The notes beneath the pieces are model-generated. The model ran no database searches, was not told the DNA's origin, and saw nothing but the letters and a program-made list of their open reading frames with translations. The position numbers and the translations under genes were made by a program. Positions 2,169-49,625 of a stretch of DNA of 64,000 nucleotides are shown here, in pieces. Positions within the stretch are counted from its first letter, which is position 1; every line of letters begins with the position of its first letter. This stretch comes from an uncultured Parabacteroides sp. (lineage in GTDB: Bacteria; Bacteroidota; Bacteroidia; Bacteroidales; Tannerellaceae): positions 728 to 64,727 of the forward strand of contig CAAGLQ010000049.1 of assembly GCA_900770835.1 (NCBI GenBank). Direction: 5' to 3'.

Positions 2169-2186
2169 GGGATGACTTCGTAAGAT

Positions 2187-2222
2187 ATAGGAGGCTGTAG
2201 GTTTGATGCCACAGCCTCCTAT
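2187..2222 (+). terminator. Stem-loop, probable terminator
   Basis: ATAGGAGGCTGT ... ACAGCCTCCTAT, 12-bp inverted repeat just after the stop at 2168. Confidence 0.6.
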
Positions 2223-10267: not shown

Positions 10268-10371
10268 ATGGGTGCACTTTTAACAGTCTGGGATTTGGAA
10301 TTGTGCTAATTCTCTGTATTTTTGTGGCGTAGTAAGGACGGTTCCTTACTTTGATTTTAAGTAATGTAATT

Positions 10372-10800: not shown

Positions 10801-10900
10801 TGGAGGGTATGGATCTGTGTGGACTGTGTGCAAGGCGTTGGTCTTGAGCGTAAAACGAAGAGTTTAATTTAAAAAACTTTGTGGTTTTAAAATTTACACT

Positions 10901-10908
10901 TATTTTTG
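10901..10908 (+). promoter_or_regulatory. Bacteroidetes sigma-A -7 element for the ompA/pilus operon
   Basis: TATTTTTG matching TAnnTTTG, with TTTG at 10878-10881 (19-bp spacer). Confidence 0.6.
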
Positions 10909-11079
10909 TGGCGAAATCCAAAACGACTATGAGACATTATGATTCAATAGAAACAACGATACTGTGCGTTGAATTAAGTAACGGACGTGAACCTTATCCT
11001 GTCGCTTGTGCGAAAGGGTAAGGTTGTGTTGTTTATAGGCGGTTGGAATTTAATTTGATATTTATAACTGAAACTTTAC

Positions 11080-12252: not shown

Positions 12253-12311
12253 GTTGACTATTTAAATGTGTTTATAATTCACTCAATGTTTAATTTAACG
12301 ATAAGAAAACT

Positions 12312-13364: not shown

Positions 13365-13442
13365 CTTGATTTTATCATAATCCCATCTGTGTTAACGTAG
13401 ATGACATATCTATAAAAATGAGTATTTATCAATGATATAACT

Positions 13443-14549: not shown

Positions 14550-14585
14550 CCTTAACCTGATTAGGGTGTAAAAATGTACATTATG

Positions 14586-14613
14586 CTACTCCCTCTTAAT
14601 AATGAGGGAGTAG
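14586..14613 (+). terminator. Intergenic stem-loop
   Basis: CTACTCCCTC-ttaataat-GAGGGAGTAG followed by TTT. Confidence 0.55.
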
Positions 14614-14648
14614 TTTAATTCAATTCGAATATTATCATAACAATATCT

Positions 14649-15773
14649 ATGAAAAAGTCTTATTTATTTATGGCTGGTTTGGCACTCATGAGTGCCTTCA
14701 CAGCATGTAGCAACGATGATGAGGTACCCACTCAGATGGCTCAGAATGAAAACACTGAGTTGATTGTCAACACGGTTGGTGTATCTCAGGTGAATACAAA
14801 GGCAGGTATTAGGGCCGAAGAGTTCACAAAAGGAGAGTCATTAGGTTTGTATATATACCGTGGTGATGGCATTAAGGATGGTGCGATTTCTGGTGAGGAT
14901 GCGAAATACAATGATGGTACTACAGGTATCTCTACGGTAAATGTGCCCTATCAGCAAAATTACAACACTACAGGTAAGTGGGGTGCAGTTCAACCTATTA
15001 TGCTGTCTAATATTGTAGGTAAAGTATATGCATATTATCCTTATATTGCGAATAATAATGCAGCGGGTGATGATGTTGACGATGGATTAGCTGTTAAGGT
15101 TACAGTTAACGAGGACCAGGGCACAGGACAGTCTTCTGGTATTGAGGATGCAAATGGTCAAACTGATTACATGTGGGCTGATGTAAACGAGGGTGTTTCT
15201 AATATGAAACCTGTGGTCAACTTGTCAATGAATCATGCCTTGGCGATGATTTCATTTACATTTGTTCAATCTCCTGATGCAAACGATAAGTATCCGGGTA
15301 TAGGACAAGTCAGTTCCATCGTATTAAAGAATAAGGATGGTGGTGCTCATTCACCGGTAACAACTGGTAATGCTACAATGAATATTTCTGATGGTACTAT
15401 TACTGGTAATGCAGCTGGTAGTATCACTGTTTCTGGAATTACAACTCCGACATTAATGGGTGTTTCAAGTAGTGTTAATCCCGAATTGATCCCTCGTATG
15501 TTGGTCTATCCGTCATCTCAAAACGTGGGAGACAATGAGGCACAAGTTGTTGTAACTGTAGATGGTAAAGCATATACCGTAGATATCCCTGCATTATTGG
15601 TCGCTGGTCAACCTGCAAAATGGGAGGCTAATAAGAACTATGAGTATACCTTGACGCTCAGAGGTGTGGAATTAGTTGTAAATCAGGTGACTATCAAGAC
15701 TTGGACGTTGGTTGAGGGTAATGACGGTGGTATGGATGTACAGAATCCTGACAGCCAGAATCGTCAACCATAA
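14649..15773 (+). CDS. Type V pilus major fimbrillin, paralog 3
   Basis: FTAC; TKAGI; YAYYPY; DYMWA; MNHAL. Confidence 0.9.
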   Translation: MKKSYLFMAGLALMSAFTACSNDDEVPTQMAQNENTELIVNTVGVSQVNTKAGIRAEEFTKGESLGLYIYRGDGIKDGAISGEDAKYNDGTTGISTVNVPYQQNYNTTGKWGAVQPIMLSNIVGKVYAYYPYIANNNAAGDDVDDGLAVKVTVNEDQGTGQSSGIEDANGQTDYMWADVNEGVSNMKPVVNLSMNHALAMISFTFVQSPDANDKYPGIGQVSSIVLKNKDGGAHSPVTTGNATMNISDGTITGNAAGSITVSGITTPTLMGVSSSVNPELIPRMLVYPSSQNVGDNEAQVVVTVDGKAYTVDIPALLVAGQPAKWEANKNYEYTLTLRGVELVVNQVTIKTWTLVEGNDGGMDVQNPDSQNRQP

Positions 15774-15850
15774 TTTGCGGCTTTTGGACATTTGCTCTTC
15801 CCTTTTGGGAAGGGCATTGTTGCATGTTTTTATTCATCAAATCAATTTCT

Positions 15851-16912
15851 ATGAAACAATCGTTCGCTTTATTGGTAGGCTTGGCGTTTATGAGTGCTTT
15901 CACAGCTTGTAGCAATGACGACGAGTTCGCTGTTGCTAAGACTGACAACCAATTGGTGGTTAAGGCTGTCGGTTTGGCTGGGGTGGATACTAAGGCGGGT
16001 ATCACGGCTACGGCTTTTGCGGGTAATGAGTCTATCGGTTTGTATGTCAACAATGGACCGTTGGGTACGAAGTATGACAACGATGTTGACTACGAAAATG
16101 TCAAGTACACAGCCAACGGTGGTGCTGATTGGGCCACGGAGTCTATGGTAACATTGACCAACGTGTCAGGTACGGTTCGTGCTTATTATCCCTATTCTGA
16201 GGATAATGGGGTTTATACACCCAGTGATCCCAATGTTGCCAACAATGGTACATCTATCCAGCTGCGTGTAAACGCTACGCAGGGTACGGGTATCGGTGGT
16301 GTGACTGCGGATGATCCTGCTCAGATTGACTATATGTGGGCTACCCCGGTAGAGAATGTAAGCAGCAGCAAGCCTGATGTTTCCTTGTCGTTGAACCATG
16401 CCTTGACGATGTTGAGCTTCCAGTTCACTAATAGTACAGAGAAACCCTATCCGGGTGTTGGTAAGGTATCTAAGATCACCTTGAAGAACAAGGATGGTGT
16501 GACTCCGTTAAAGGCAGGATTGGCAACGATGAATATAGACAATGGGGAAATCACATTGGATGCTGGGGCGGCTGCGGCTGAGTTTAGCGTTTTGCCGAAT
16601 GCTGAGTCTTTGAAGAATGTGGCTGACCTGAATGCGATGCCTCGTTTCTTGGTGTTCCCGGCGAATACGGCAACGGCAACCAATATCAATGCGGGCGATA
16701 TCATTGCCGAGATTATCTTGGATGATGTGAAGTTCTCCTTGAAACTACCGGCTATTCCTGGTGGTTTTGTCGCTGGCAAGAACTATCAATTCCAATTCAC
16801 CATAAAGGGTGTTGAGCTTGAGGTGGATCAGGTTACGATCAAACCGTGGGTTACTATACCTACATCGGCAGGCGATATTCAGGATCCGGATGATCAGGTG
16901 CGTGTGCCATAA
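15851..16912 (+). CDS. Type V pilus major fimbrillin, paralog 4
   Basis: ATG at 15851; FTAC; TKAGI; RAYYPY; DYMWA. Confidence 0.9.
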   Translation: MKQSFALLVGLAFMSAFTACSNDDEFAVAKTDNQLVVKAVGLAGVDTKAGITATAFAGNESIGLYVNNGPLGTKYDNDVDYENVKYTANGGADWATESMVTLTNVSGTVRAYYPYSEDNGVYTPSDPNVANNGTSIQLRVNATQGTGIGGVTADDPAQIDYMWATPVENVSSSKPDVSLSLNHALTMLSFQFTNSTEKPYPGVGKVSKITLKNKDGVTPLKAGLATMNIDNGEITLDAGAAAAEFSVLPNAESLKNVADLNAMPRFLVFPANTATATNINAGDIIAEIILDDVKFSLKLPAIPGGFVAGKNYQFQFTIKGVELEVDQVTIKPWVTIPTSAGDIQDPDDQVRVP

Positions 16913-16996
16913 TCAAGTTTAATCCTGTACTATTTATTTTTTATGGGTAGAGGGATGTGCTCATCACTCTATTTACACAACTAATTGATTTTTACA

Positions 16997-17542
16997 ATGA
17001 AATTAAAGTATTTGCTGGTTTTGTCGTTGTTGTGTGCCTGCTGCATGGGGGCACAGGCGCAGAGTATGGGTGTGAAAACATCTGCCACGCTTTGGGCAAC
17101 CTTGACACCGAACGTGGAGCTTAGCTATGTGGTGACTGAACATATTACGGCGCACTTGCCGGTGCAGTATAATCCCTTTGTGCTGGGCGAGAACTCGCGG
17201 TTCCAACAGCTGACGGTCATGCCGGGTGCGCGCTATTGGTTTAAATTGGCGCACGCTCGCTATTTTGTTTCTGGCTACGCCATCGCTTCGCGTTTCCACG
17301 TTGGGGGTTGGTTTGACCAACCGTATCGGTACGATGGCAAGTGCTTTGGCTTGGGCATTGGTGGTGGCTATAGCTGGTTGCTGAGTAAGTGCTTTAATTT
17401 AGAGGCTGAGTTGGGGTTTGGTGGTGCATACGCCAACTACGACAAGTGCTATTGGCCCAAGAACTCCAAACGGATTTCGAATGAGAAGGGTATTCGTTTC
17501 TTTCCCTCTAAGTTCGATGTGAGTCTGGTCTATTTCTTTTGA
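16997..17542 (+). CDS. DUF3575 outer-membrane beta-barrel protein
   Basis: VKTS.TLWATLTPNVEL, PGARYW, FNLEAELG, terminal Phe; typical of Bacteroidales fimbrial loci. Confidence 0.85.
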   Translation: MKLKYLLVLSLLCACCMGAQAQSMGVKTSATLWATLTPNVELSYVVTEHITAHLPVQYNPFVLGENSRFQQLTVMPGARYWFKLAHARYFVSGYAIASRFHVGGWFDQPYRYDGKCFGLGIGGGYSWLLSKCFNLEAELGFGGAYANYDKCYWPKNSKRISNEKGIRFFPSKFDVSLVYFF

Positions 17543-17560
17543 TATGGAGTGTTTAAGGAT

Positions 17561-19321
17561 ATGCGCAGAGTCGGGATTCAACATATTATTACTGCTTGCT
17601 TGCTGCTGACAGTGGGGTGTAATACGCGCTACCAGCTGGATAAGATGCAACGGAAGGAGGGTATTGTCAATATCAGACAGCCGCTCCGTAGCGAGAAGAA
17701 GGAGCAGGCTGACTCTACCGCGGTTCCGAAAGAGATTAAGTTTAAAGATAAGGACGGTAAAGAGGTCAACATCTTGAGTGGTGAGCTCGATGGGGATGAT
17801 TATATCTATTCCGTCCAATTGGAGGGGGTCGAGGTCGTGGCGAAGTCCAAGACGGTCCCCGAACGGGATGGTATGATTACCATCTCTTTTATCGTCTGTG
17901 TGCCGGCTAGCTACCTGCAGAGCGAATGGCGACTGACGGTGCATCCGAGCTTGGATAACAATGGGGTGATTACACAGCTGAAACCGGTGGTGCTCTCTGG
18001 GTCTGATTTTCGGACGATCACCAATCGGCATCGTTTCTACTCGGACAAGGGGGCGCTGGCGGATCTGAAGCTGGAGCGTGATCTGTTGGAGCGCCGAATG
18101 GCACTGAGCAGTAAGCATGCGCCGAGCCAGCAGGAGGTGGATTCCCTAGAGGCGGTGCTGACAAATTGGGATGAGACACGGAGCGCACTGTATGCGCAGG
18201 ACTGGAAACTGGATTCGATTATCCAACGGAAATCGAATTTTGAGTATTACTATAACCAGGAGTTCCCGAGCGAGGATATGGAGAAGAAACTGAAGCTCTC
18301 CTTTACAGCGGACATTCAGGATCTGGATGGGCGACAGTATGACCTTGCCTTCGGTGATACGTTGAACTATTTCATCTCTTCGATGATGCAGTTTCTGGAT
18401 CGTACGCCTCGCTATGTACGGCAGACGATCTATCGTAAGTCAACGGAGAGTACCTCTTGCTATATCAATTTCCCGGTGGGTTCAACCGTAGTGCTGGATA
18501 CATTAGGAAACAATAGGGAGGAACTGGATAAGGTGAGTCAGAAAATGCGTGAGATCAACGAGGGGAACGAGTTTGTGATTGACTCGATCTTGTTGATGGC
18601 GGGCTGCTCGCCCGAGGGGGCGTACGAGATGAACCGCACGCTGGCGGCGGGCCGTGCGTCTGCGTTGCATACCTATCTGGCTCCGGTGCTGGAGTCAAAT
18701 GCCGAGGCGGTGGAGCTGGTTAAGGAGAAGCCGCAGGCGGAGAACTGGGACAAGCTGATCAAGCTGATACGGGATAAGAAGTTTGAGAACCAGGATGGCA
18801 TCATGGCGATCATCCGGGAGACGGAGGATCTCGATCAGCGCGAGTTTAAGATAAGGAATGACTTTCCGGAGGAGTACGAGGTGATTCGTAATGAGCTCTA
18901 CCCGGAGCTGCGTTCCGTCGATTTTGTGTTTTACCTCTCTCGTAGGGGTATGGTGGAGGACGTCGTTTATACGGACGTGATTGACACGGCTTATGCGAAT
19001 GCGATCAAGCTGATGGATAAGCGTAAGTATAAGGAGGCGATGCCTAAACTGTTGGAGTATAAGGATTGGAACATGGCGATTTGTTATATGTCGCTGGGTT
19101 ACAACGATTCTGCGATAAAGATTTTTGAGTCACTGCCACAGAACCCCGATAGGGATTATATGCTGGCGATTCTCTATTCCCGGGTGGGACGCATTGAGGA
19201 TGCGGTGGCGACCTTCGTTCGGTGCTGCCAGGAGGATGACTCTAAAATCGATAGGGGTGAATTGGATCCGGAGATTTCAAAGTTGATGGATCAATATAAG
19301 TTACGAGATCGTTTATATTGA
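17561..19321 (+). CDS. Pilus-associated lipoprotein (DUF3868-like, OmpA-like domain plus TPR)
   Basis: Lipobox TVGC; INFPVG; CSPEG.YEMNRTLA..RA; ENW; LYPELR; TPR-like C-terminus. Confidence 0.75.
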   Translation: MRRVGIQHIITACLLLTVGCNTRYQLDKMQRKEGIVNIRQPLRSEKKEQADSTAVPKEIKFKDKDGKEVNILSGELDGDDYIYSVQLEGVEVVAKSKTVPERDGMITISFIVCVPASYLQSEWRLTVHPSLDNNGVITQLKPVVLSGSDFRTITNRHRFYSDKGALADLKLERDLLERRMALSSKHAPSQQEVDSLEAVLTNWDETRSALYAQDWKLDSIIQRKSNFEYYYNQEFPSEDMEKKLKLSFTADIQDLDGRQYDLAFGDTLNYFISSMMQFLDRTPRYVRQTIYRKSTESTSCYINFPVGSTVVLDTLGNNREELDKVSQKMREINEGNEFVIDSILLMAGCSPEGAYEMNRTLAAGRASALHTYLAPVLESNAEAVELVKEKPQAENWDKLIKLIRDKKFENQDGIMAIIRETEDLDQREFKIRNDFPEEYEVIRNELYPELRSVDFVFYLSRRGMVEDVVYTDVIDTAYANAIKLMDKRKYKEAMPKLLEYKDWNMAICYMSLGYNDSAIKIFESLPQNPDRDYMLAILYSRVGRIEDAVATFVRCCQEDDSKIDRGELDPEISKLMDQYKLRDRLY

Positions 19322-19334
19322 ATTGGATTTTTAT

Positions 19335-20240
19335 ATGAGAATGTCACGGTTAAAGCATTGGTTGGGTTTGGGCTGCTTGGCTTCGGTCATGGCGTGCTCA
19401 GACGATGCGCAGTGGGTGGATCATACCGCACAGCTTCAAGTGTCGGTGGCTATCTCGGACGGGATCTTGACCAAAGGCTTGGTTGAGGGTACGTCGTTCG
19501 ACAATGGAGCGAAGATCGGTTTGTACCTTGAGGGGATGTCCGCTACTGCCTACGATGGTTATTCCTATAAGAATGTTTGTTTCACGTCATCGATTGTGGA
19601 TGAGGTACAGTCCTGGTCGGGTGGGCCGATCCTGCTCTCTTCAACCAAAGGGAAGGTGTTTTGCTACTGGCCTTTCAAAGAGGAGGGGTATGCGAACTAT
19701 ACGGCAGTGCCTATTTCAGCGGCCGATCAGATCGATTATATGTATAGTGGCTGGCATACCGATGTCTCTAATGCGAATGCGGCCCTGTCCGTGACGATGA
19801 AACATGCGCTGACTGCTGTCCAGTTTAATGTGAAACGGGGTGACTACACGGGTGTAGGTAATCTAACGGATGTCAAGATCGCTTCTGAGGGTCTGGGGGC
19901 TACGGGTAACCTGGACTTCTCCACGGGTGCTCTCTCGAATCTAACAGTAGGGGAGATAACGCTGACTGGGCTGGATGCCAACTTGGTGGCGGATCCGGCG
20001 TATGAGGCGAAGCTGCTGGCGCTGCCGATGGGTCTTGGGCAGGCGAAATCGATTCAGGCGTCCTTCACGATCGATGGGAAGGTGTTCCCGATTGAGTTGA
20101 GCGTGACGGAGCCGTGTGCGGCGGGTAGCAAGTATGTCTATGAGATTACTCTCAATAGTCTGGGTCTTGTCGTGCAGCGAGTGACGGTGACCAAATGGGC
20201 CGACAGTGGGGTGGATCAGAGTATTGATACGCAGTTATAA
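19335..20240 (+). CDS. Fimbrillin-family lipoprotein (minor pilin)
   Basis: VMAC; TKG; CYWPF; DYMYS; MKHAL. Confidence 0.85.
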   Translation: MRMSRLKHWLGLGCLASVMACSDDAQWVDHTAQLQVSVAISDGILTKGLVEGTSFDNGAKIGLYLEGMSATAYDGYSYKNVCFTSSIVDEVQSWSGGPILLSSTKGKVFCYWPFKEEGYANYTAVPISAADQIDYMYSGWHTDVSNANAALSVTMKHALTAVQFNVKRGDYTGVGNLTDVKIASEGLGATGNLDFSTGALSNLTVGEITLTGLDANLVADPAYEAKLLALPMGLGQAKSIQASFTIDGKVFPIELSVTEPCAAGSKYVYEITLNSLGLVVQRVTVTKWADSGVDQSIDTQL

Positions 20241-20252
20241 GAGGGGGTGACT

Positions 20253-21152
20253 ATGAATTGGAAATGTTTAGGCTTGGTTGTCTTATTGACCATAGGGGCA
20301 TGCGAACCGATCAACGAGCAGAATTGGTTTGAGAACGAGGTGGTTACGCTGGATTGGACCGCCGCAAATCCGACAACGGGCTATCGCCCGTCTGAGGTGG
20401 GTTCCCTCGCTTTGTATTACTACCCGCAGGATAAATCAGGCACGATGAGTTGCCAGGAGTATTTGTGCGACAAAGATGTGGTGTCGGTGCCGCTGGAGTC
20501 AGGTCACTATGACATGCTGGCGATCTCTAATGATAAGAGTGTGCATAAGGATAAATATTATCGCTCGGCCTATGTAGCGTTTCAAACGGAACTGGACTCG
20601 CTCCAAAATCGGGTGATCGTGGCCGGTGGCGAGGAGATGATCTATAAGGGATCGCTGAGCGATGTGTCGGTCGAGAATGACCGTAAGCAGAGCCGGAAGG
20701 TGGTTCTGCATCGTTTATTGAAGAAGCTTACCTTTATTGTGAATATCTTCGATTATCAAGAGCTGACGCATAATGTGGCGATCGAGATGTCGGGCGTTGC
20801 GTCCCGTATGTTGCTACATAACGAGAAACCAGAGGCGGACTCGGAGGCGATCCTGCGAACGCGTATCAACAAGCTGGGGCGTGAGGCGCAAACGGAGCTG
20901 GGCGTGCATACGACCTTCAAAGGTACGGTGCATGTGCTGGGGGTAACGGGGTACAACATCCTGAGCCTCGCGTTCGTTGACTGCAGGGGCGTAGAGAAGA
21001 TGCTCGAACTGGATATTACCTCCTATCTCAAGACTTGGGATACCGAGGAGGCGGTGGTTTATGTCAACATCAATAGTCCGCAGGAGTATGCGAATCTTGA
21101 GCGTTGGAATACGATTAATGGGGATATCATTATTAACAACCAAGACCTATGA
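20253..21152 (+). CDS. Mfa2/FimB-like (DUF5119-like) pilus anchor lipoprotein
   Basis: IGAC lipobox; LDW, LYYYP, L.SGHYDMLA. Confidence 0.6.
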   Translation: MNWKCLGLVVLLTIGACEPINEQNWFENEVVTLDWTAANPTTGYRPSEVGSLALYYYPQDKSGTMSCQEYLCDKDVVSVPLESGHYDMLAISNDKSVHKDKYYRSAYVAFQTELDSLQNRVIVAGGEEMIYKGSLSDVSVENDRKQSRKVVLHRLLKKLTFIVNIFDYQELTHNVAIEMSGVASRMLLHNEKPEADSEAILRTRINKLGREAQTELGVHTTFKGTVHVLGVTGYNILSLAFVDCRGVEKMLELDITSYLKTWDTEEAVVYVNINSPQEYANLERWNTINGDIIINNQDL

Positions 21153-22084
21153 CTATGTGGAATCGATTTTTCTTACTTGGGGTGGTACTAACCATCTGCG
21201 CTTGCAATAAGCTGGAGGATATGCCGCAGGATATCCAAGAGGATATTCCTCCGGTCGTGGTGGATCCGACACCGACGAAACAGGTGTATCTTGATGTGTC
21301 GCTTGGGGCTAACTTCTCTCATAAGTGGGGGGATTTGGATAGCATCTCGATGTTCGTCATGCGGGACGAGCAGATGGATATCGAGCATCCGGAGAATAAC
21401 AACGTGCCGGCAGTCTATCGGTATGGGGCGTGGTCGATCGAGAGCCCAATTACGATTACGGATGATAAATGGAAAGCTTATGCTTATTATCCCTATACGG
21501 CGAATCTGGAAAGTTTCAAGGTGCCTATCGTGTCGGGTGATAGTGTCCGTCGTATGGTAGGCAAGACAGCTCTGCCGTTTGGCTTCCATAATAATAATAT
21601 CGTGATCGAGATGTGGCAGCCTGTGGCGCTGGTTACGGTCTATGTGCGCAAGCAGGGCAAGGTGGAACGCAAGGTGGTGGATCAGGTGCGCTTGTATAAG
21701 AAGAACAGCGGTCTGCCGATCGAGGGTCTGCTGGATATCTTGTCGCAGTCGATTACCTATACGAAGATGGGTGACTATGTCAAGTCTGATTTGGGGTATG
21801 AGGTCTCATCGGCACAATCTGCCGAACCGATCGATATAGAGGTGTTACCGACGTATCAGCAGACCAAGGCGGCGACGGTGGATCTCTCTTCGCCTACCTA
21901 CCTAGAGCTTATGATTAATGATAGTCCCTTCTCGGCTGAACTGCCGAAGGCGGTGACTGAGTGGGAGTCGGGTAACCATTATACGATTAATGTGATTTAT
22001 AATAACGATGTGGTGACGATCGAGAGTGTCTCGATCCGACCGTGGAATACCGAGCATCTGGAGATTTTCCCGGAGGAACAGTAG
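21149..22084 (+). CDS. Fimbrillin-family lipoprotein (minor pilin)
   Basis: ICAC; AYAYYPY; WESGNHYT; IRPW. Confidence 0.8.
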   Translation: MTMWNRFFLLGVVLTICACNKLEDMPQDIQEDIPPVVVDPTPTKQVYLDVSLGANFSHKWGDLDSISMFVMRDEQMDIEHPENNNVPAVYRYGAWSIESPITITDDKWKAYAYYPYTANLESFKVPIVSGDSVRRMVGKTALPFGFHNNNIVIEMWQPVALVTVYVRKQGKVERKVVDQVRLYKKNSGLPIEGLLDILSQSITYTKMGDYVKSDLGYEVSSAQSAEPIDIEVLPTYQQTKAATVDLSSPTYLELMINDSPFSAELPKAVTEWESGNHYTINVIYNNDVVTIESVSIRPWNTEHLEIFPEEQ

Positions 22085-24229: not shown

Positions 24230-24877
24230 ATGAATGCGAACGTATTACGATATGGTTGGTTGGGATTCCTGATGGGGCTGATGGCTTGTACGGAATCGGT
24301 AGATCCGGCAGTGGGCCGGGTCTATAATGCGGATCATTCCTTTACAATAGGGGTGGTATCCGACCGTCAACCGTTGGGTATGGTGTTCGCAATGGAGGCG
24401 GGGCCGGATAGTGCGTATGCCTATGTGGTGTCTCTGACGGAGTGTAGCCTGCCAATCGCTGGCGACAGAGGCTTCTTGTCTGCAGATACCTCGTCAACGG
24501 CATTCAATGGGTTCGCTAATACGCAGCTGTGGCGTGACTCCCTGTCGGGAGGGGCGCTGTTGGATCAGCTGGCTGCCTATGGTAAGGGGTGGTTCATCCC
24601 TTCTGTGGGGGAGTGGCGTATGCTGCGGGATTCGTTCCTGGTCACGAACGAGCGTCTGGCGTTGTTGCCGGCGACCGATCCGCTGTGCCAGGGGCAGTAT
24701 TGGTGCTCAACGGGTCATGCTGAGCGTAACTATGGCTACTGCGGTGTGGCTTACGATGTGTATTCGGATACCTTCGGCCTGTTCAACCGGGCGGACTCTT
24801 GTCGAGTGCGTCCGATGCGAAGGGTGCTGCTGAAGGGATCTTTGTGGAAGAAATGGATAGAAAATCAAACCTTTTAA
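24230..24877 (+). CDS. DUF1566/C-type-lectin-like lipoprotein
   Basis: LMAC; NGFANT; GWFIPSVGEW; YWCST...CRVRPMR. Confidence 0.7.
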   Translation: MNANVLRYGWLGFLMGLMACTESVDPAVGRVYNADHSFTIGVVSDRQPLGMVFAMEAGPDSAYAYVVSLTECSLPIAGDRGFLSADTSSTAFNGFANTQLWRDSLSGGALLDQLAAYGKGWFIPSVGEWRMLRDSFLVTNERLALLPATDPLCQGQYWCSTGHAERNYGYCGVAYDVYSDTFGLFNRADSCRVRPMRRVLLKGSLWKKWIENQTF

Positions 24878-24879
24878 CT

Positions 24880-27800
24880 ATGTGTTGTATGAATAAAGTA
24901 CGCAATGTGTTATGGTCACTCCTGTTCTTAATGGGCTTAGTTGGGGTGACTGCCTGTGGGGATGATGACGGTCCCCAGACAAATGGGAATGGTGATGTGC
25001 TGGCATATCTCTACGACGTGGAGGAGCGGACAGATGGCACAGAGACCAAGGCTCCGAAATCGACCTGGACAACAGGGGACGCCATCGGCGTATTCTGTGT
25101 GGAGCCAGGTAAGCAACTGGGTCGTGTCAACTATGTCTCCAATTATAAATATGTATATGACGGGAGTAAATTCAAACCGGCTACCGCTGCGGATAATATC
25201 TGGATCAGCCGACAGGGTTCGTTTAAGTTCTTTGCGTATTATCCCTACGACGCAAGCAAGACGGGTGTCGATGCGACGGCTATGGAATTTACGCTGTCTT
25301 CGGACCAATCGGTTGAGACGAACCGGATCGCTTCCGATATTATCGCAGGTCAGTCCTATACGGCGGATAACACGACGGGTGAGGTGGATATGATTTTCTA
25401 CCACATGATGTCGGATGTGCGTTTTGTATGGACACGTGACGATGCGGAGAATGGGGAGTATGTGCGGGCGTTGTTCGCACCGAAGGCGATTGTGAACTTG
25501 GATCAGCTGACCTCACAGGTGGCTCCGGGGCAGACGATCGGTACCGGTATCCGCATGAACGTAAAAACGGAGTTTAATGCGGTGGCGGGTTCGACGGAGT
25601 ATCAGGTGTATGTGCCGCCCGTGTCGATTAACCATGATCAGGATGTGTTTGTACCCTATGATGCGAACGAGGAGAAGCTCTCCTCGATCAAGGCGAACTT
25701 GGGTGCGCCGGGTACAGCCAAACAGCTGGAGCGGGGCAAGACCTATGACCTGGCGGGAACCATGTACACGATCACGGCGGACGTGCGCCGTAACGGCGAC
25801 CTGGTGACTGACGGGTGTGACGATTTCGACGGCTGCGTGGTGAACGCCGACGGCGGTGGCGACGCAGGAGACTTGAAACAGTTTGTGGGTCGTTACCTCT
25901 CCGGGCGGACCTGCACGGTGACAGCGGAGATAGCGGACAACGTAGTGCCGGGAACGCAGTTCATCGGGTGGTTTGAGTACGACCGGACAAGTGCTACTTG
26001 GTCTAAGGTGGAGGGCGCTACCGAGACCTATACGTTTGACGTGACAAAAAATAGACGCTTGCAGGCTCGTTATGAGAACTACGTCTTCGGTCCTTGGACG
26101 TTGCAATGGACCCATGCGGGTGTGTCTACTGACGGGAGTGGTAACTTCACAACGACGATATCGAACATGGGTACTCCGGCAGGGGGCTTGACGCTGGTGC
26201 CGAAGGCGACCCGCGACGTGACCCTCGATGGCGAGGTGGTAACGGATCCGGCGTTCACGACCCGCGAGGGTAGCCAGGTGGTGATGGAGATCGTGGACCA
26301 GACCCCGGACACGGATATGTGGGACGTGAACCCGTGGACGTTTGATGACGCCACGAAGGTTGTCACGGTTACCCCGAACATCGACTTTACCGATAACGGG
26401 ACAAGCGGCACGCCGCTTGAGCGTAACCTGAAACTGAGCGTGAAGCTGCTGCAGGGTGGCCCGAACTACGATCCGGTCAACCATATCTATGACGACCTGT
26501 TGCTGACAGGCAACGGTGGGGATATGAGCATCGTGCAGAGCAAGGGTACCATGGCTTACAGCGCTTGGAAAGTGGAGACCGCTCCGACGGATAACTCGGG
26601 TATGCTGGCCAACGGCACGACAGTATCTTCAGTGGACGCGTTCGCCTATCGGACTTGGACATTGTCGGGCCAGACAGTGAAACGGGAGTCCACCTCCGCC
26701 TATACGAATATCACGGCGGCGTTCACGACAACGGACAGCCACTGGACAGTGACTCCGGGCACGGAGGCGCTGACCAAGACGGTGACGATCGAGGGGCATG
26801 AGTTCACCCTGATCAATGGACGTAACTTCAAGGTGCAGGCGGCGAACAATGAGTCACTCAATGTACGAAACATCACCTGCCGCTTCAGCAGCAACTCGGT
26901 GTACTTGGATGTGGCGTTTAGCCAGCAGGCGGGTGTCAAGACGAACCGGAGCTACTCGGATTGGGTGATCGCCTTGACGGCGACGCCGACAACGCTGGAG
27001 CCGTACGCCTCCTCGGGCAACACCAATACCTCGTTGATCACGACATCGGCTTCCCGTACGATGACCTTTAAGTGGAACGAGACGGGTGACGACAAGACGG
27101 AGTCCCAGACGGACGGCGGCAGCTATAACTTTGGTAATGGCAATACCGGCACGCATCCGAAGGTGACCTGGACGGTGACGCCGGAGAAGAGCGGACAGTT
27201 CTTCGCGCAGAGCGGCAACATCACGGGTAACCGTGTGGCGGTGAATAAGAACTATATTCTCATGCAGGATACACCGGCCACGAGTGCCACGGTGACGGCA
27301 ACGATCTCGAACAGTGTATCGGATAATGGCAACGGTAACGCGAATAGCTCAAAGGATATTACCTTGACTCAGAAGGGTGGTGCCTATACGGAGACGTTTG
27401 ATGGTTGGACGGGCCAAAAGATTACCGTGGGGTCTGCGATCAATGGTGACGGTGGTACGACAACGTTCTCGGTAACGGTACCGAGCGGGTGGATCCGGGC
27501 GTATATCAATGGTGACCGCATGGCGGCGGGTGACTACCAGATATCGGCGGAGTGGAGTACGACATCGATTAGTAGTTCGTCTAATCAGTTCTCTGTTCAG
27601 AACGCTTCAAGCGGTAATGTGTCGGCCGAGGGTAACCATAGTAGCACACAGCCGGATTATACCTCTTGGTCGGGTGGTGGGGCTTCGTTGAGTAGCTCCA
27701 GCTTCGGGCGCAGTGGTGGATCAACGACGATATCGGCATCGGCTTATCCTACCCGTGAGGTATGGACACGGTACAATACCTCTACTCGTACGGCTACGTT

Positions 27801-28758
27801 GACGGCTACGTTTACGAAACCTGCTTCGCATGCGTCTCAGAGTTATGTACCTACTCCGCCGAATGCGACGGCCACTGTTTCACAGAATGGCTCTTCAACG
27901 GAGTTGAGTGGAACACGTAGCACAGAAAGTGATACGGAGTTTTCATGCTCGGAGAATCAGTCCTGGTCGAGTACATCGGGGAAGACGTTGTATGTGGATT
28001 CGTATGCGCCAACAGAAACGGTGACAACGGATGTGTCTGCAGGTTCTTTGTCAGTGTCTCCTACAAGTATAAGTGCAAGAGGTGGTAACATTAGTGCCTC
28101 GGCTGGCTCTGGTACTCGTTATTACGATGTTTATTATTCATCGTATAACCGGAGTGGTACAGTGACGATTACATTTACTAAGTCTGGTATATCCAAGACT
28201 GTTGGGTATTCACAATCGAGCTCAAGGACCTATAAAGAAAGTGGTACATCAAGTGTTTCGGGTTCTATCTCTTGGCCGTCTTGGGCAAGTGGAGGGTATG
28301 CGAGCGAAAATACTTCAACCTCGTCACGGTCGGGTTCGGTAACGGCTAAGTATAGTTATGATGGGTATTCAGATTCAAGGTCGGTGACGATTACGCAGGC
28401 TGCGGCTGAGATTACCTATAGTAATTACAAGATTACGGTGAATCCGACGTCAATGAGCTGGGCTGGTAACTCTGAAACAAGCAAATCGTATTCGGTTTCA
28501 GGTTCTGCTACGAAATATGTCAATGGGACTTCTCAGGGTACGGTTAGCTTTAGTGTGACAAGTATCAGTGCGTCTTGTACGGGTGACTTTAGTGGCAGCT
28601 CAAGTAGTATTTGGCCGGATGGAACTAATGAAACGAGCTCGACTAAGACAGGTACGGCGACTATTACAGGTTATGTGAATGGGACGAAGTGTACTGCTAC
28701 TATTAGCTTGTCGCAGGCGGTTCGTGATTGGACGGTCACTGGTGGTGGAGGGAATTAA
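24880..28758 (+). CDS. Large fimbrillin-anchored tip adhesin with Ser/Thr-rich repeat modules
   Basis: VTAC; TKA; GDAIGVF; FFAYYPY; FYHMMS; InlB-B-repeat-like FIGW..YTF; modules ending T.SQ/T.TQ. Confidence 0.8.
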   Translation: MCCMNKVRNVLWSLLFLMGLVGVTACGDDDGPQTNGNGDVLAYLYDVEERTDGTETKAPKSTWTTGDAIGVFCVEPGKQLGRVNYVSNYKYVYDGSKFKPATAADNIWISRQGSFKFFAYYPYDASKTGVDATAMEFTLSSDQSVETNRIASDIIAGQSYTADNTTGEVDMIFYHMMSDVRFVWTRDDAENGEYVRALFAPKAIVNLDQLTSQVAPGQTIGTGIRMNVKTEFNAVAGSTEYQVYVPPVSINHDQDVFVPYDANEEKLSSIKANLGAPGTAKQLERGKTYDLAGTMYTITADVRRNGDLVTDGCDDFDGCVVNADGGGDAGDLKQFVGRYLSGRTCTVTAEIADNVVPGTQFIGWFEYDRTSATWSKVEGATETYTFDVTKNRRLQARYENYVFGPWTLQWTHAGVSTDGSGNFTTTISNMGTPAGGLTLVPKATRDVTLDGEVVTDPAFTTREGSQVVMEIVDQTPDTDMWDVNPWTFDDATKVVTVTPNIDFTDNGTSGTPLERNLKLSVKLLQGGPNYDPVNHIYDDLLLTGNGGDMSIVQSKGTMAYSAWKVETAPTDNSGMLANGTTVSSVDAFAYRTWTLSGQTVKRESTSAYTNITAAFTTTDSHWTVTPGTEALTKTVTIEGHEFTLINGRNFKVQAANNESLNVRNITCRFSSNSVYLDVAFSQQAGVKTNRSYSDWVIALTATPTTLEPYASSGNTNTSLITTSASRTMTFKWNETGDDKTESQTDGGSYNFGNGNTGTHPKVTWTVTPEKSGQFFAQSGNITGNRVAVNKNYILMQDTPATSATVTATISNSVSDNGNGNANSSKDITLTQKGGAYTETFDGWTGQKITVGSAINGDGGTTTFSVTVPSGWIRAYINGDRMAAGDYQISAEWSTTSISSSSNQFSVQNASSGNVSAEGNHSSTQPDYTSWSGGGASLSSSSFGRSGGSTTISASAYPTREVWTRYNTSTRTATLTATFTKPASHASQSYVPTPPNATATVSQNGSSTELSGTRSTESDTEFSCSENQSWSSTSGKTLYVDSYAPTETVTTDVSAGSLSVSPTSISARGGNISASAGSGTRYYDVYYSSYNRSGTVTITFTKSGISKTVGYSQSSSRTYKESGTSSVSGSISWPSWASGGYASENTSTSSRSGSVTAKYSYDGYSDSRSVTITQAAAEITYSNYKITVNPTSMSWAGNSETSKSYSVSGSATKYVNGTSQGTVSFSVTSISASCTGDFSGSSSSIWPDGTNETSSTKTGTATITGYVNGTKCTATISLSQAVRDWTVTGGGGN

Positions 28759-28812
28759 TTCCTCCACTATTTATGGAAATTATTATATCTTTGTAATCTA
28801 AATATTTTTTCT

Positions 28813-30090
28813 ATGAACAAACTAAAATTGTATTTATCATTGATAGGGCTACTATTAATAGCCTCTATGCCAAAAGCGTGGTCATACGAAGATTTGACAA
28901 ACGTAGTTGTGGAATTGGTTGATATACCAGATGTTTCTGTTACTATAAGAGAGACTCATTATGGGAATATTGCCGTAAAAGGTCAAACCAAAGTATTGGG
29001 TGTAACTTTGTACAGTAACTTGACAAGTACGAAACAATGCGATATAACCTTTGCAGCATTTAAAAATGATGGAGAGGTTGTACAAATCTATGATGGCGAC
29101 AAGAATGTTTCACTCGAGGCAAACGGTAGCTATGAATTGAAGGTTCCTTGTTTAATCAATTTGCCAGAAGGAGACTATCATTTTGTACCGGTGATCCATT
29201 TTACGGGTGATTCTAAATGGTATATATGTCGTAGGATGACTTCTGTTGTCAAGAACGGATATTGGAAGTTACATGTCTATGAGGATTATAAGGCTCCCTC
29301 TTCAGATTACATGAACCTACCAGATATAGAAGGTAAGGGCGATAGCGAATATAGCCTCTATCATTTTTATCAGAACGAAAAGTTCAGAGTAGAGATGAAT
29401 TTAGTTAATAAGCGTTCTGAGGAATTAAGAGGAAAGCTAAAAATCGTTTGGGAACGAAATATGGCTAAGTTTTGGCGGGGAATGAGCTATGAATCCGGCG
29501 ATATTACCACCGAATGGCAAGAGTGTGCTTCAATGTTAGCTTATGCAGGAGATACGAGAGCGGTCAATGGAGCAATACCTATATCAATACCTGCGAATGA
29601 GTCTCTGCATTTGATCATAAAGGATTGTTATTTGTGTAGTTATCATGATTATGGTAATAGATGGAGTCCTTTTTTGTGTGCTTATTTTTTACCTGAGGGG
29701 AGTGCTGATATAGAATCTAACTGGTTATTGGTCAATGAAAATGCAGACTTCGCTTTTGATGAAACGGTTTTGAAAGATAATTATGGCTGGGACCATGGCT
29801 TGAATCAGTTGGCTTGCAAAACCTTTGAAGGTTCATTATCAACGGAACGCATCAATATAGAATCGATAGTATTTTCTTATAATAGAAGCGTCCGGATGGT
29901 TACTATTGAAGGGCTCACGGACTCTGGCTTTATCCGTGTGATAACTATGGATGGAAAATTAGTAGAAACAGCCTGTTCAATCGTAAATGGATCATCTTCA
30001 TTTGTGCTACCCTCAAATGGGAGGATCTACATCATTAGTATTTATGATTCGGATGGGATGTTAGTTAAGTCATTCAAGGTCCTTTCATAA
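28813..30090 (+). CDS. Secreted protein with T9SS-type C-terminal domain
   Basis: Signal peptide; C-terminal MDGKLV...GRIYII...KSFKV; AT-rich; TATCTTTG promoter near 28786. Confidence 0.65.
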   Translation: MNKLKLYLSLIGLLLIASMPKAWSYEDLTNVVVELVDIPDVSVTIRETHYGNIAVKGQTKVLGVTLYSNLTSTKQCDITFAAFKNDGEVVQIYDGDKNVSLEANGSYELKVPCLINLPEGDYHFVPVIHFTGDSKWYICRRMTSVVKNGYWKLHVYEDYKAPSSDYMNLPDIEGKGDSEYSLYHFYQNEKFRVEMNLVNKRSEELRGKLKIVWERNMAKFWRGMSYESGDITTEWQECASMLAYAGDTRAVNGAIPISIPANESLHLIIKDCYLCSYHDYGNRWSPFLCAYFLPEGSADIESNWLLVNENADFAFDETVLKDNYGWDHGLNQLACKTFEGSLSTERINIESIVFSYNRSVRMVTIEGLTDSGFIRVITMDGKLVETACSIVNGSSSFVLPSNGRIYIISIYDSDGMLVKSFKVLS

Positions 30091-30277
30091 AACTGCGGAA
30101 ATTCTTGACTGAAAGATGTTGCATAGAACAACTGTGAGAATCAGTTGAGAACTGTTATATGAAAGGTGTATGATTCCTTGGTTATAGATTGTTAAAAAAT
30201 ATCGGTATGTTTTGATATATATCTATTGATATAATAAGTTATATATACCTTTGTTTCACAAACTAAAATGTTTAACT

Positions 30278-31141
30278 ATGAAAAGATTACGTTTATGCTA
30301 TTTATTGCTGACATTAGTCTTATTTGGATTAGGTGCATGTCAGGAGAAGTTTGAGAATGAATCAGAGTATTCTGATTCAAATCGTACGGAATTCTCAGTC
30401 AAAGAAGAGGTAATAACTAAGGCTGGGACTAAGTCCACCTCCATTACTGGTGGTACGGGAACTTTTAAGACTGGATCAAGCACTACAGTTACTGCAAAGG
30501 GTGGGGCGACAATCACAGGGAAGCGCACATCTGGCAGCGGTTCTATTGGCGCTACTTATCAACAAGGTGGAGTTGCTAAAGCTGATATTAATGACATCCA
30601 TGGTGATTGGACTGTTTCTGCAACAATCCCCACTTATACAGTTACTGTAAAAGCTGGAACGGGTGGATCTGCGTCTGGAGGTGGTACTGTTGAGGCTGGT
30701 GATGCAGTTACATTGAGATATTCAAAGAATAGCGGCTATGATTTTAATGGTTGGACATCTAGTAATGGTCAATCAATAGCAAGTTCTGCTTCATCATTCG
30801 TGCCTAGTTCGGACTGTACTGTGACTGCAAATTTCAAGGCTGCTGCAGCATCTACTGGAACCTTGGTTGTGTCTGTTTTAAATTGGTATGGTAGTGATAG
30901 TTATCTATCAAAAGTGTCGTATAACTTAGATGGAAGTACTACTACTGTAACGGGCAGGTGGGATGAACCAGATGACTTCTTGACCAAAACATTGTCTGCT
31001 GGTTCACACAGCATTTCTATTGTTTCTTCAGGAACTACAGTGGTTGGAGCAAGTGGTTACAAAGTGTATTTTGATCCCGCAACATTTACTATAAGCGCAG
31101 GTCAAACCACGTATGTGAATTTGATAGTTACAACTAACTAA
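30278..31141 (+). CDS. Surface lipoprotein with InlB B-repeat-like domain and putatively switchable C-terminal domain
   Basis: LGAC; TKA; GGSASGGG..GYDFNGW...TVTANF; contains the left inverted repeat. Confidence 0.8.
   Translation: MKRLRLCYLLLTLVLFGLGACQEKFENESEYSDSNRTEFSVKEEVITKAGTKSTSITGGTGTFKTGSSTTVTAKGGATITGKRTSGSGSIGATYQQGGVAKADINDIHGDWTVSATIPTYTVTVKAGTGGSASGGGTVEAGDAVTLRYSKNSGYDFNGWTSSNGQSIASSASSFVPSSDCTVTANFKAAAASTGTLVVSVLNWYGSDSYLSKVSYNLDGSTTTVTGRWDEPDDFLTKTLSAGSHSISIVSSGTTVVGASGYKVYFDPATFTISAGQTTYVNLIVTTN
30806..30842 (+). repeat. 37-bp inverted repeat, left copy
   Basis: AGTTCGGACTGTACTGTGACTGCAAATTTCAAGGCTG, exact reverse complement of 31737-31773. Confidence 0.95.
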
Positions 31142-31154
31142 ATAACAGCACAAT

Positions 31155-31203
31155 CAATTGGGTAGGAGCGCAGGGAATTAATCTCTACGCTCCTACCCGA
31201 TTG
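31155..31203. terminator. Long hairpin between the convergent alternative C-termini
   Basis: CAATTGGGTAGGAGCGCAGGGA-attaa-TCTCTACGCTCCTACCCGATTG. Confidence 0.7.
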
Positions 31204-31238
31204 TATCAGAGTTTGCGTACTCCACCTATATGTATGGT

Positions 31239-31310
31239 AGCGCCGTATACGAAACCCGTACTTACGGTGCAATGAGTGGTGCTGGGGCGAAATCCCCACA
31301 TCTACTCTAT
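31239..31310 (+). ncRNA. Group II intron (class C-like) domain V-VI remnant
   Basis: GCGCCGTA-TACG-aaacc-CGTA-ct-TACGGTGC (CGC triad, 2-nt bulge), then a TGGGG/CCCCA stem ending CTACTCTAT. Confidence 0.65.
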
Positions 31311-31434
31311 TAGCACACAACATTATCTTGTTATCTAATCTGTTGGAAAGTCGAAGTCATCATGAATAGATGTAAACATAATTACTTTGCGCTATTCCAA
31401 ACTTCTCGATATGACAACTAAAAATGGTATTGGC

Positions 31435-31773
31435 TTAGTAATTGATATAAATTGTCGCTGACTGATTGGTTGATAAATTGGAAAAAGTTTTTGTTGTAGA
31501 TCCTGCCATGTCAAAATCACAACCATAATTATCACACGATACCGTCATTGTGACATTAGCCCCTTTGTTTGCTGTTATTGTCCAAGTTTTTACTGAAGCA
31601 CTAGAAGCAACAATTTGTGAAGTGTTAGGGCTCATTGAGTTATGGCCACTCACAGCCAAGGAAACTGTAGCCTTTTTCCCTGTTGCGATGCCTGTCGATT
31701 TTGTTGAAACTGTAATAGTATAAGTTTGTGTCTCTACAGCCTTGAAATTTGCAGTCACAGTACAGTCCGAACT
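31435..31773 (-). other. Silent alternative C-terminal cassette for the 30278 lipoprotein
   Basis: Reads SSDCTVTANFKA-VETQTYTITV...IYINY*, first 12 aa identical to the 30278 protein; no signal peptide. Confidence 0.8.
31737..31773 (-). repeat. 37-bp inverted repeat, right copy
   Basis: Exact reverse complement of 30806-30842. Confidence 0.95.
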
Positions 31774-32137
31774 GTTGTCTTTTAGTTGGGACGTGATTGG
31801 CTCTATATCTGAACTTTAAGCTATATGTAGTGATTTGATAATTTGACTAAGGTTGGTACATTTTTGGAGTACCTATTTGGTATCTTTAGATGATCCGAGC
31901 TAATGTGATAATCCAAAAGAATGCTAAATCTTCAGATCTTCAGTGACATGGGATTCAGATTATGGATATATTTGAATGCTGAAAAAATTAAACTATTTCA
32001 TTTTGTTGGTGAGCGGTCGTTGGGAAACGGTCGCTTTTTCTTTTAGATAATTTCTGATATAGTGTTTTTGCCAACCTTTTCTTCTTAGGTTGGCGTCGAT
32101 CGTTTACTTGGTCTCCACTGGAGAATTAGATGTTGTA

Positions 32138-41961: not shown

Positions 41962-43872
41962 ATGCATATGGATACAGACACACATATTGAGACAATGGCT
42001 AAAGCGCCAGAATCCACCAACAGGGAGATAAGCTCGTGCTACCACGTCATCCGGGTCGGTCTTCGGTTGAACAATCATACCGACCGCATGCTGCGGCACT
42101 TCTTTCATGGATGCGACGCGTTCAAGGTTGAGCTGGGCAATCTCGTGTCAGGGCGTTTGAACACGCTCATGTCCGAGAAAGAGAACGCCGAGCTTGCCAA
42201 GGAGCTGGATACCCTGACCATGAAGAAGAGGATGAGCAAGGAGGACAAGAACCACTTCTCCGAGATGACCAAGGAGCTCCGGGAGCTGTTCAAGGATAAC
42301 GGTCTCGACAAGGGCGGCGTGTACCGGCTGGCTAAGGAGTTGCGCAAGAGCATGACCGACAGCAACAAGTCCGCCCTGTACTCGCTGGTCTCACAATCCA
42401 TAGCAGACGCTTACGTTCAGGGACTCTCCGTCATCGCCTCCGGAAAGGGCAAGTATCTCCATGTGCCGAAATGGGGCTGCCTTGACGCCATATCCTTCAA
42501 GCAAGAGGGTAACGGCTGCCACCTCGACATCGAGAAGCGGACGTTCACCTTCAGGGCGTGGAAGAAGATCGACGGCAAGATCAAGACCTTCCAGTTGACG
42601 CTTCCGATCGTGGTACCCCGCCATAGCTCCGCCGGTGACGAGCTGGACGATCTGCAGAGGAAGGTCATGGAGTACAAGGTACAAGGAGAGGACATATCCA
42701 CGGCCTATAACCCCGTTCGCTACTGCGTCATCCGTCGGAGGCGCTGCCAGGACCACGGCAAGATCATATTCCGTTACGAGCTGCAGATCCTCGTCGAGGG
42801 TTCGGCTCCGGAGCGCAAGCACCGCCCCGTTCTCGGGGTGGGCAAGGCCGGCATAGACCCCTCCACATTCACGCACGCCGTGGTCAGCGACAGCTACGCG
42901 GGTTTCTTCACGCCATCGCCCTCGATGACGAAGTTGCAAAACAAGTGCGCCCACCTGCTCCGCCGCATGGATGCCGAGCTTCGAGCCAAGAACGAGTCCT
43001 GGTTTGACGAAAAGGGACGCTGGCATCGCCCGGACGACGAGGAGGTGGCCAAAAAGGGCCTTGTCAAAAGCAAGCTCTACCGCAAGCTGCTCCACAGGCT
43101 GCAATACTACTGGCAGCGATACACGGATACCCGTCTCTGCCTCTTCCATGCCGAGGCCAGGTTCGTTTGCGCCCTGGCGAGCGTTCTCTTCGTCGAGGAT
43201 ATGAGCTACAGCGGCCTGCAGAAAAGAGGGCACAGTGAGGTGCTCGTGACGCACCGTGACGAGAACGGCAACGATGTCACCGAGTCCGAGGAATGGACAC
43301 GGCGCCGCTTCGGTCGCTCCATCCTGAGAGGGGCTCCGGGGTTGTTCCTCAGTATCCTCGAGAACACGGTGAAAGCCGCCGGCGGCAGATTCGTCAAGGT
43401 CAGTCCATGGGATATCAAGGCAAGCCAGTACAACCCGCTGACCGGAGCGTACAACAAGCACGGGCTTGACGAGCGGGTCATCGAGGTGACTCCCGGCATC
43501 TATATCCAGCGGGACTTGCTGGCGGCGTACATCCTGAAGCATTGCGAGCTGGTGATAGACCCAGAGAAAGCGAAGAGTAAGGCCAAGAAGGATGAGTCCA
43601 TAGCGCAGGAAACAGAGACGGACATGGTTAGTGAGCCAAGGAAGAACGGGCGTATCCGCCCAAGGCATGAGCGGAAGGTAAAGTCCTCCGAGACCTACCA
43701 GACAAACAAGCTCGCCTGTCGGGAAGAATTCGAGCGATTCCGCCAGATCCACGATGACTGCATCCAGTATATCGTGCGCCATTACGATGAGTTGCCAGCC
43801 TCCGTGGGACTGAAGGACTTGAAGGAGATTTTCCTTGAAAAAAATTGTCAAGACCAGCGAAAAACCGCCTGA
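41962..43872 (+). CDS. tnpB: Large TnpB-family RNA-guided endonuclease
   Basis: RuvC-I GIDP, RuvC-II FVEDM, RuvC-III QRDLLAA; RRFGRSI..GAPG; KASQYNP. Confidence 0.85.
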   Translation: MHMDTDTHIETMAKAPESTNREISSCYHVIRVGLRLNNHTDRMLRHFFHGCDAFKVELGNLVSGRLNTLMSEKENAELAKELDTLTMKKRMSKEDKNHFSEMTKELRELFKDNGLDKGGVYRLAKELRKSMTDSNKSALYSLVSQSIADAYVQGLSVIASGKGKYLHVPKWGCLDAISFKQEGNGCHLDIEKRTFTFRAWKKIDGKIKTFQLTLPIVVPRHSSAGDELDDLQRKVMEYKVQGEDISTAYNPVRYCVIRRRRCQDHGKIIFRYELQILVEGSAPERKHRPVLGVGKAGIDPSTFTHAVVSDSYAGFFTPSPSMTKLQNKCAHLLRRMDAELRAKNESWFDEKGRWHRPDDEEVAKKGLVKSKLYRKLLHRLQYYWQRYTDTRLCLFHAEARFVCALASVLFVEDMSYSGLQKRGHSEVLVTHRDENGNDVTESEEWTRRRFGRSILRGAPGLFLSILENTVKAAGGRFVKVSPWDIKASQYNPLTGAYNKHGLDERVIEVTPGIYIQRDLLAAYILKHCELVIDPEKAKSKAKKDESIAQETETDMVSEPRKNGRIRPRHERKVKSSETYQTNKLACREEFERFRQIHDDCIQYIVRHYDELPASVGLKDLKEIFLEKNCQDQRKTA

Positions 43873-49491: not shown

Positions 49492-49625
49492 TGATCGTAA
49501 ATCATGTTTTACTACAGTTTTAAACATAATCAGATGCTACCTGTGGGTTATTTTTGATTGGATATGGATGGTCATTTTATATAAATGGACTACCTTTGTC
49601 GCATATAACATTTAAAACCTTAGCT

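Follow-up and report, generated by a model that had tools for sequence, protein, structure and literature searches.

A putative shufflon-type switch that would exchange the distal domain of a type V pilus-locus lipoprotein in Parabacteroides

Why should the gene for a small lipoprotein at the end of a pilus locus share a perfect inverted repeat with the DNA beyond its own end? The question is raised by a stretch of 64,000 nucleotides from an uncultured Parabacteroides sp. (GCA_900770835.1, contig CAAGLQ010000049.1, here C49, positions 728 to 64,727; in the following "the window"), which belongs to an assembly of 3.9 Mb in 324 contigs with a completeness of 85% (G000). A first reading of the letters alone, referred to below as the sequence-only reading, had proposed that the segment between the repeats inverts and so exchanges the end of the lipoprotein. 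The features that bear on this proposal are as follows.

11080 to 22084, plus strand: type V pilus gene cluster with OmpA, four tandem TKAG pilins, DUF3575, TPR and further Mfa-like genes
24799 to 28758, plus strand: pilin-like protein of 1319 aa (Mfa_like_1), conserved as a neighbour, whose C-terminus is a conserved tail containing W
28813 to 30090, plus strand: 425-aa gene of no known family, which adjoins the cassette locus in the relative too (50% identity)
30278 to 31141, plus strand: lipoprotein gene, 287 aa (P0001), with signal peptide, Cys21, acidic linker, TKAG, two B-repeat-like domains and a variable C-terminal domain
30416 to 30427, plus strand: TKAG motif, aa 47-50, as in the four upstream tandem pilins; candidate processing site
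30635 to 30844, plus strand: PF18998 divergent InlB B-repeat domain, aa 120-189 (E 2.5e-14)
30806 to 30842, plus strand: left 37-bp repeat, putative recombination site inside the gene (inverted-repeat scan, genome match count, site alignment)
30806 to 31773, no strand: putative invertible segment of 968 bp with two convergent tails (in-silico flip)
30843 to 31141, plus strand: cassette C1, the tail of the current lipoprotein gene, about 100 aa
31155 to 31203, no strand: long hairpin from group II intron domain-6 sequence, possible terminator (-34.8 kcal/mol, z -7.56)
31238 to 31310, plus strand: group II intron domain 5/6 remnant (RF00029, 30.7 bits, below the gathering score of 40)
31435 to 31736, minus strand: cassette C2, a silent, leaderless, intact tail of about 100 aa, 72-89% identical to the C-termini of five full-length proteins
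31737 to 31773, minus strand: right 37-bp repeat, putative outer recombination site (inverted-repeat scan, genome match count, site alignment)

The repeat is as exact as the sequence-only reading had described it. Its arms of 37 nt are 100% complementary across a spacer of 894 nt, their in-register flanks diverge immediately on either side, as had also been claimed, and the identity between them covers all third codon positions. It is the longest inverted repeat in the window, the runner-up being 71% complementary, and the search for further copies that had been recommended returned exactly two matches to the 37-mer in the whole genome, even when 10 mismatches were allowed. A genome-wide scan for perfect inverted repeats of at least 20 nt within 8 kb found 11, with a spacer of more than 60 nt in 5 of them; the 37-bp repeat is the sole one of its length that lies away from a contig end. 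Reversal of the 968-bp segment in silico converts the 287-aa gene into one for a 288-aa product, in frame and with the ends that had been foreseen, and sites within a reading frame that yield in-frame alternative C-termini are a feature of R64-type shufflons. One such segment with two sites is present in the 64 kb, where shufflons of the R64 type have multiple segments and several sites. What has to be given up is the label "intragenic". Intragenic invertons in the sense of Chanin et al. have both repeats in one gene, whereas here the right repeat lies outside it, and in the terms of PMC10028968 (available in part) the locus is a partial intergenic inverton, or else of shufflon type.

What would such an inversion exchange? 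The 37-bp repeat encodes the last strand of the PF18998 domain and sits at the boundary between this domain and a C-terminal beta-sandwich of about 100 aa, so that a swap would replace exactly the domain that follows. In the AlphaFold model of P0001 residues 41-190 are confident and the tail is poor; unrelated tails are mixed in the alignment for C1, hence the low confidence there. The right repeat is read by a minus-strand frame open from 14 codons upstream, in which no start codon precedes the repeat, in keeping with the leaderless frame of about 100 aa reported earlier, and 100 codons stay open in 25 of 20000 shuffles of the inner segment. With C2 as the query, 5 hits were obtained among 525 candidate longer proteins. 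All five are full-length lipoproteins of 280-310 aa that end in C2, and PF18998 was detected in all four that were scanned. The model of one of them, P0023, whose tail is 89% identical to C2, presents residues 208-304 as a confident domain of its own (pLDDT 81-88). Structural matches to this C2-type tail are weak (best Z 7.4, rmsd 3.1, 90 residues aligned) and fall on beta-sandwich domains in pilins and adhesins of Gram-positive bacteria, an arrangement that is common, so that the matches are no proof of function. An Atlas search with C2 gave only leads scoring under 0.9.

Between the two convergent ends lies the long hairpin that had been noted before. Its sequence matches the 3' ends of two other introns in G000, on C67 and C272, and judged by sequence this central hairpin is group II intron debris. 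The adjoining domain 5/6 remnant was missed by Rfam on 6 kb and detected by a 131-nt search; no U-tailed terminator was called at the hairpin by a simple scan. The related introns on C67 and C272 (L006 and L008) have no evident reverse transcriptase gene nearby. The G+C content at 28001-32000 is 38-40% as compared to 48% genome-wide, which suggests that the cassette locus was acquired.

That tails are exchanged at the site is indicated by the homologous proteins. A homolog search found 20 proteins among 8000 candidates scored, 17 of which are full family members, and a search of representatives, dominated by long B-repeat proteins, gained one member. The 17 members are conserved up to the C-T-V-T-A-N-F strand and unrelated beyond it, and the proteins, when split at the site (33 of 34), fall into 10 N-terminal and 14 C-terminal groups. 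P0029 and P0026, which end in C1 and C2, respectively, are 94% identical in their N-terminal and 23% identical in their C-terminal parts, so that one N-type is seen with both tails of the window. P0003 and P0004 (N 93%, C 31%) as well as P0018 and P0019 (N 83%, C 21%) differ in the same manner. The reverse holds for P0029 and P0003 (N 32%, C 99%) and for P0026 and P0027 (N 35%, C 95%). The window's own N-type is found with three tails, C1, C3 and C4. Tails also occur as leaderless orphans: in P0210, present on 4 contigs, the tail of P0018 (100%) follows 9 unrelated amino acids which stop just before D-C-T, and P0193 is an orphan C1 with 89% identity to P0003. P0192, on 2 short contigs, is the exact C1 of the window read from a GTG inside the site; such a product is expected from the flipped state, but the same call would arise if a contig happened to end close to the repeat, and P0192 may be read either way. 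On 3 contigs P0036, a protein of the P0012 type, stops precisely at the site, as would be seen if assemblies branched there.

The N-types of P0023, P0024 and P0027 have diverged sites, and their link to C2 may hence be fixed. In some cases two full-length paralogs seem to share a contig, judged by equal contig sizes, and P0208 looks like a mosaic with a crossover upstream of the site, so that homologous recombination explains part of the mosaicism. DNA context among these proteins was covered for the P0012 type and for L017, and in the other protein lineages inversion would be deduced from protein sequences. From the swapped tails of its relatives, the locus very probably belongs to a DNA-inversion system that varies what is displayed on the cell surface. 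The core of the sequence-only reading, a shufflon-like swap of the C-terminal domain at this repeat, is strongly supported by the two tails on one N-type, by the occurrence of fused as well as silent tails and by a relative with four cassettes; a protein joining the window's N-type to C2, on the other hand, which would be the flipped product, is not found among the five C2 hits.

The relative with four cassettes is Parabacteroides massiliensis. L009 (P. massiliensis), L011 and G070 represent the same locus, which in L009 and L011 lies beside the counterparts, of 426 and 1396 aa, of the window's 425-aa and 1319-aa genes. Both contain a truncated remnant of the N-terminal part together with four silent sites; these form two convergent pairs separated by an ATPase gene, and within each pair a hairpin lies between the tails. 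On comparison of the sequences this arrangement is the unit of the window twice over, and the window's two-state form resembles a larger multi-cassette system cut down to one unit. The P. massiliensis cassettes are decayed by stops or frameshifts, and the four L011 sites share 22-27 of 37 positions among themselves as opposed to 37 of 37 for the two sites of the window. A comparison of homologous loci for either orientation, advised at the outset, found all markers in one orientation in 11 loci of this type, with the exception that in G070 the last silent site is displaced and reversed, next to prophage genes. The single orientation, together with the stops and frameshifts, indicates that the system can freeze; set against this decay, the perfect identity of the arms and the intact C2 in the window argue for recent or present flipping. 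The displaced cassette of G070 adjoins a 578-aa large serine recombinase (L040, 9447-12888), and the other half of the locus in L009 is flanked by prophage-like genes.

Where within the site would strands be exchanged? An alignment of eight sites is consistent with a conserved core and downstream arm and a variable upstream arm, the conserved part being protein-coding as well. One site of L011 is split by an insert of 1513 bp (9608-11117), which carries another full-length gene of the family and has CGACTG on both sides. Taken with the boundary in P0210, this split would put the probable point of crossover at the site's 5' edge. The notion that the insert is a circularly permuted unit was discarded, the small-gene homology across its right junction being weak and out of register. 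Upstream of the insert, an IS end disrupts the expression gene.

We propose that a shufflon-type system recombines at this repeat and would thereby exchange the distal domain, about 100 aa long, of a surface lipoprotein whose gene closes the pilus locus. A single expression site, made up of promoter region, signal peptide and two B-repeat domains, would end in a recombination site, and the invertible unit would carry two convergent tails, each headed by a site. Crossover near the 5' edge of the site, presumably around the CGACTG/GGACTG core with its Asp codon, would invert the unit and fuse C2 in place of C1, in frame and at the domain boundary. The window would represent a minimal, one-unit version of such a system, flipping until very recently or still, under the action of a site-specific recombinase that is presumably encoded elsewhere and acts in trans. 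We are rather confident that the locus belongs to a cassette-exchange system. That, in addition, site-specific inversion is active here or was so recently is a reading towards which we lean slightly; inversion as the route, its recent activity and a role of the product as an adhesin are what we infer.

But where would the recombinase be encoded? None was found on C49, which bears out the earlier remark that the window contains none, and no counterpart to the adjacent Rci-like tyrosine invertase of R64 was detected there. The genome search for invertases that had been called for gave six tyrosine and two serine recombinase matches; every one of them lies on a contig other than C49, and none is tied to the site. 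With eight recombinases as queries, no remnant was detected in the 64-kb window. An Mpi-like serine invertase (C74, 17246-17866) and the recombinase on C77 were considered as candidates and set aside, since nothing ties either to the site. On C77, at 1854-3263, a tyrosine recombinase gene precedes an inverted repeat of 21 bp whose arms are 147 bp apart, possibly an invertible promoter. Beside the cassettes of the relative the only recombinase genes found are a prophage-type large serine recombinase and integrase fragments.

The empty surroundings would also suit a locus in which a true shufflon architecture has outlived its cognate invertase, lost with the rest of the array, so that the strain is locked on C1. 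The decayed locus of the relative with its single orientation, the intron debris within the segment and the lack of the flipped protein point in the same direction. Against a relic of this kind stand the two sites, which agree at every position when those of the decayed locus do not, and an intact C2 that is 89% identical to an expressed tail; P0192 speaks against it too, and Bacteroidales invertases can act at a distance (PMC12632263, available in part). We consider such a frozen state unlikely, though by no means negligible. Nor need there be a dedicated enzyme at all, if RecA-type recombination or gene conversion were to work through the short shared sequence and through full-length paralogs, with rare flips only. 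The paralog pairs, the upstream crossover in P0208 and the want of a recombinase on C49 agree with this, as does the length of the repeat, its 37 bp exceeding the 19 conserved bp of the R64 sfx sites, which have a 12-7-12 bp structure with a variable left arm (PMC11852207, available in part). Yet silent cassettes start at the same codon in separate lineages (in the window, four times in L011, and in P0210), and the split site of L011 indicates one 6-bp core, whereas exchange driven by homology would not fix the 5' edge so sharply, which makes this explanation improbable in our view.

Finally, the segment might not flip at all if the right copy were an artefact of the assembly, a linker motif that is shared, or the end that remains of a truncated paralog. 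The strand encoded by the site is indeed the one most conserved in a common domain, and the assembly is fragmented into 324 contigs. Against this, the identity extends to all third codon positions, and the genome has just two copies. With 21 family proteins as queries no N-terminal half was traced beyond the right copy, and the same orphan architecture is present in an independent genome and in 10 metagenome loci. Truncated paralog and artefact, which the sequence-only reading had itself named as its possible undoing, are therefore disfavoured, and this explanation as a whole is very improbable. We accordingly return to the shufflon-type system set out above and to the function of its product.

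Is the lipoprotein part of the pilus? At the sequence level it combines the features of a tip pilin, namely a signal peptide, Cys21, a strand at residues 38-43 and then the TKAG motif common to the pilins of the locus. All 21 family proteins checked retain T/S-K-[AGV], also where their N-types are only 32-35% alike. In type V pilins cleavage takes place at a basic residue that follows the anchor strand, and tip pilins are without donor strands (PMC13655056; 10.1101/2024.11.15.621889; both available in part). A Pfam scan of the lipoprotein gave no Mfa_like_1 or Mfa2 match, and no type V pilin was among the matches listed in a structural search, all of which are weak and among which its absence does not exclude one. 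We regard it as plausible, if somewhat short of probable, that the lipoprotein is a non-canonical tip incorporated into the pilus. The widest reading, in which a Bacteroidales shufflon family combines several N-termini of lipoproteins with a repertoire of at least 14 C-terminal binding domains through one site, with a recombinase acting in trans and the products serving as non-canonical type V tips, is rather doubtful.

The pilus locus offers some further observations. The four tandem Mfa_like_1 pilin genes (12312-16912) are 70-86% similar over 91 nt at their 5' ends and have the TKAG motif in common. The 1319-aa protein, whose homolog in L009 has 1396 aa, contains long Ser/Thr-rich repeats and a donor-strand-like tail like those of the other pilins. 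Two more Mfa_like_1 genes at 47698-50801 encode C-terminal Lcl_C-like and PKD-like domains and are possible conventional tip pilins. Between these and the cassette locus, at 41962-43872, lies a gene for a 636-aa TnpB-like protein (NF040570, E 7.6e-12, below the cut-off) that is longer than usual.

How widespread is the family? Among relatives compared by DNA, 3 of 61 matched, outside G000 with short intron-like hits only. A search of the genus gave hits in 7 of 79, full-length only in G000 and G070 and in the others as single B-repeat hits in unrelated proteins. The 425-aa neighbour and the site pattern were both found in 2 of 183 genomes of the taxonomic family, and a draw at the level of the order gave 1 of 401. 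Scans of viral sequences found no locus of the family and one unrelated B-repeat hit, and searches of plasmids and phages found none of the family. The family is rare, with 2 of 183 genomes, and this limits its reach.

The literature searched yielded no report of a shufflon that exchanges a whole domain at a type V pilus locus or acts on a PF18998 target. The available part of PMC9881135 makes no mention of PF18998, InlB, fimbriae or Parabacteroides, and one supplement gave no match; its list of about 11,000 predicted loci lies outside this comparison. In the available part of 10.1101/2024.11.17.624012 there is nothing on such a switch. The tables of PMC10028968 give coordinates without domain names, and the family could be listed there unnamed. 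Gut Bacteroidales are known to vary their surfaces through promoter inversions, SusC/D and HsdS shufflons and DGRs. If our proposal is true, a third way of varying pilus-linked binding would be added, proteins that match each other except in the distal domain would open a direct way to ligands or phage receptors, and the locus would point to a recombinase with a new, possibly asymmetric site.

Taken together, the locus is probably a shufflon-type C-terminal cassette switch on a new target. It resembles the shufflon of R64/IncI1 (Rci, sfx, pilV) in its convergent alternative C-termini, in sites that lie inside the frame and in a target beside a pilus operon. The apparent combination of a conserved core and downstream arm with a variable upstream flank recalls the R64 sfx sites (PMC11852207), though the conserved part is here coding as well. 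Different from R64, no adjacent rci-like gene was found and the site sequence is unrelated; moreover, the target is a PF18998 lipoprotein instead of the type IV PilV, the locus is chromosomal and of Bacteroidales, and the N-termini appear to vary too. Single-segment switches of C-termini are also known from phage tail fibres, in the Gin/gix system of Mu and the Cin/cix system of P1. With these the window shares one segment, two convergent C-termini and a perfect inverted repeat of similar length in the gene, but it has no adjacent serine invertase and no clear dyad in the site, and its target is not a phage gene. Inversions in tail genes are mentioned in PMC9881135 as well. Closer in descent are the SusC/SusD shufflon of Bacteroides fragilis (Tsr0667) and the HsdS shufflons, which belong to the same bacterial order and in which inversions likewise rebuild surface or specificity proteins, whereas in the window a single small lipoprotein domain would be exchanged and no linked invertase was found. 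Finally, the DGR-diversified type V tip adhesins of Bacteroides have a variable C-terminal lipoprotein domain at the operon end and a basic candidate processing residue, as does the lipoprotein described here, but they consist of a pilin NTD with a C-Lec head instead of a B-repeat stalk with a beta-sandwich tail, and they vary by mutagenic retrohoming, not by the recombinational swap of a whole domain (10.1101/2024.11.15.621889, available in part). On the widest reading given above, a shufflon family of this kind would be a recombination-based counterpart to DGR diversification of pilus tips.
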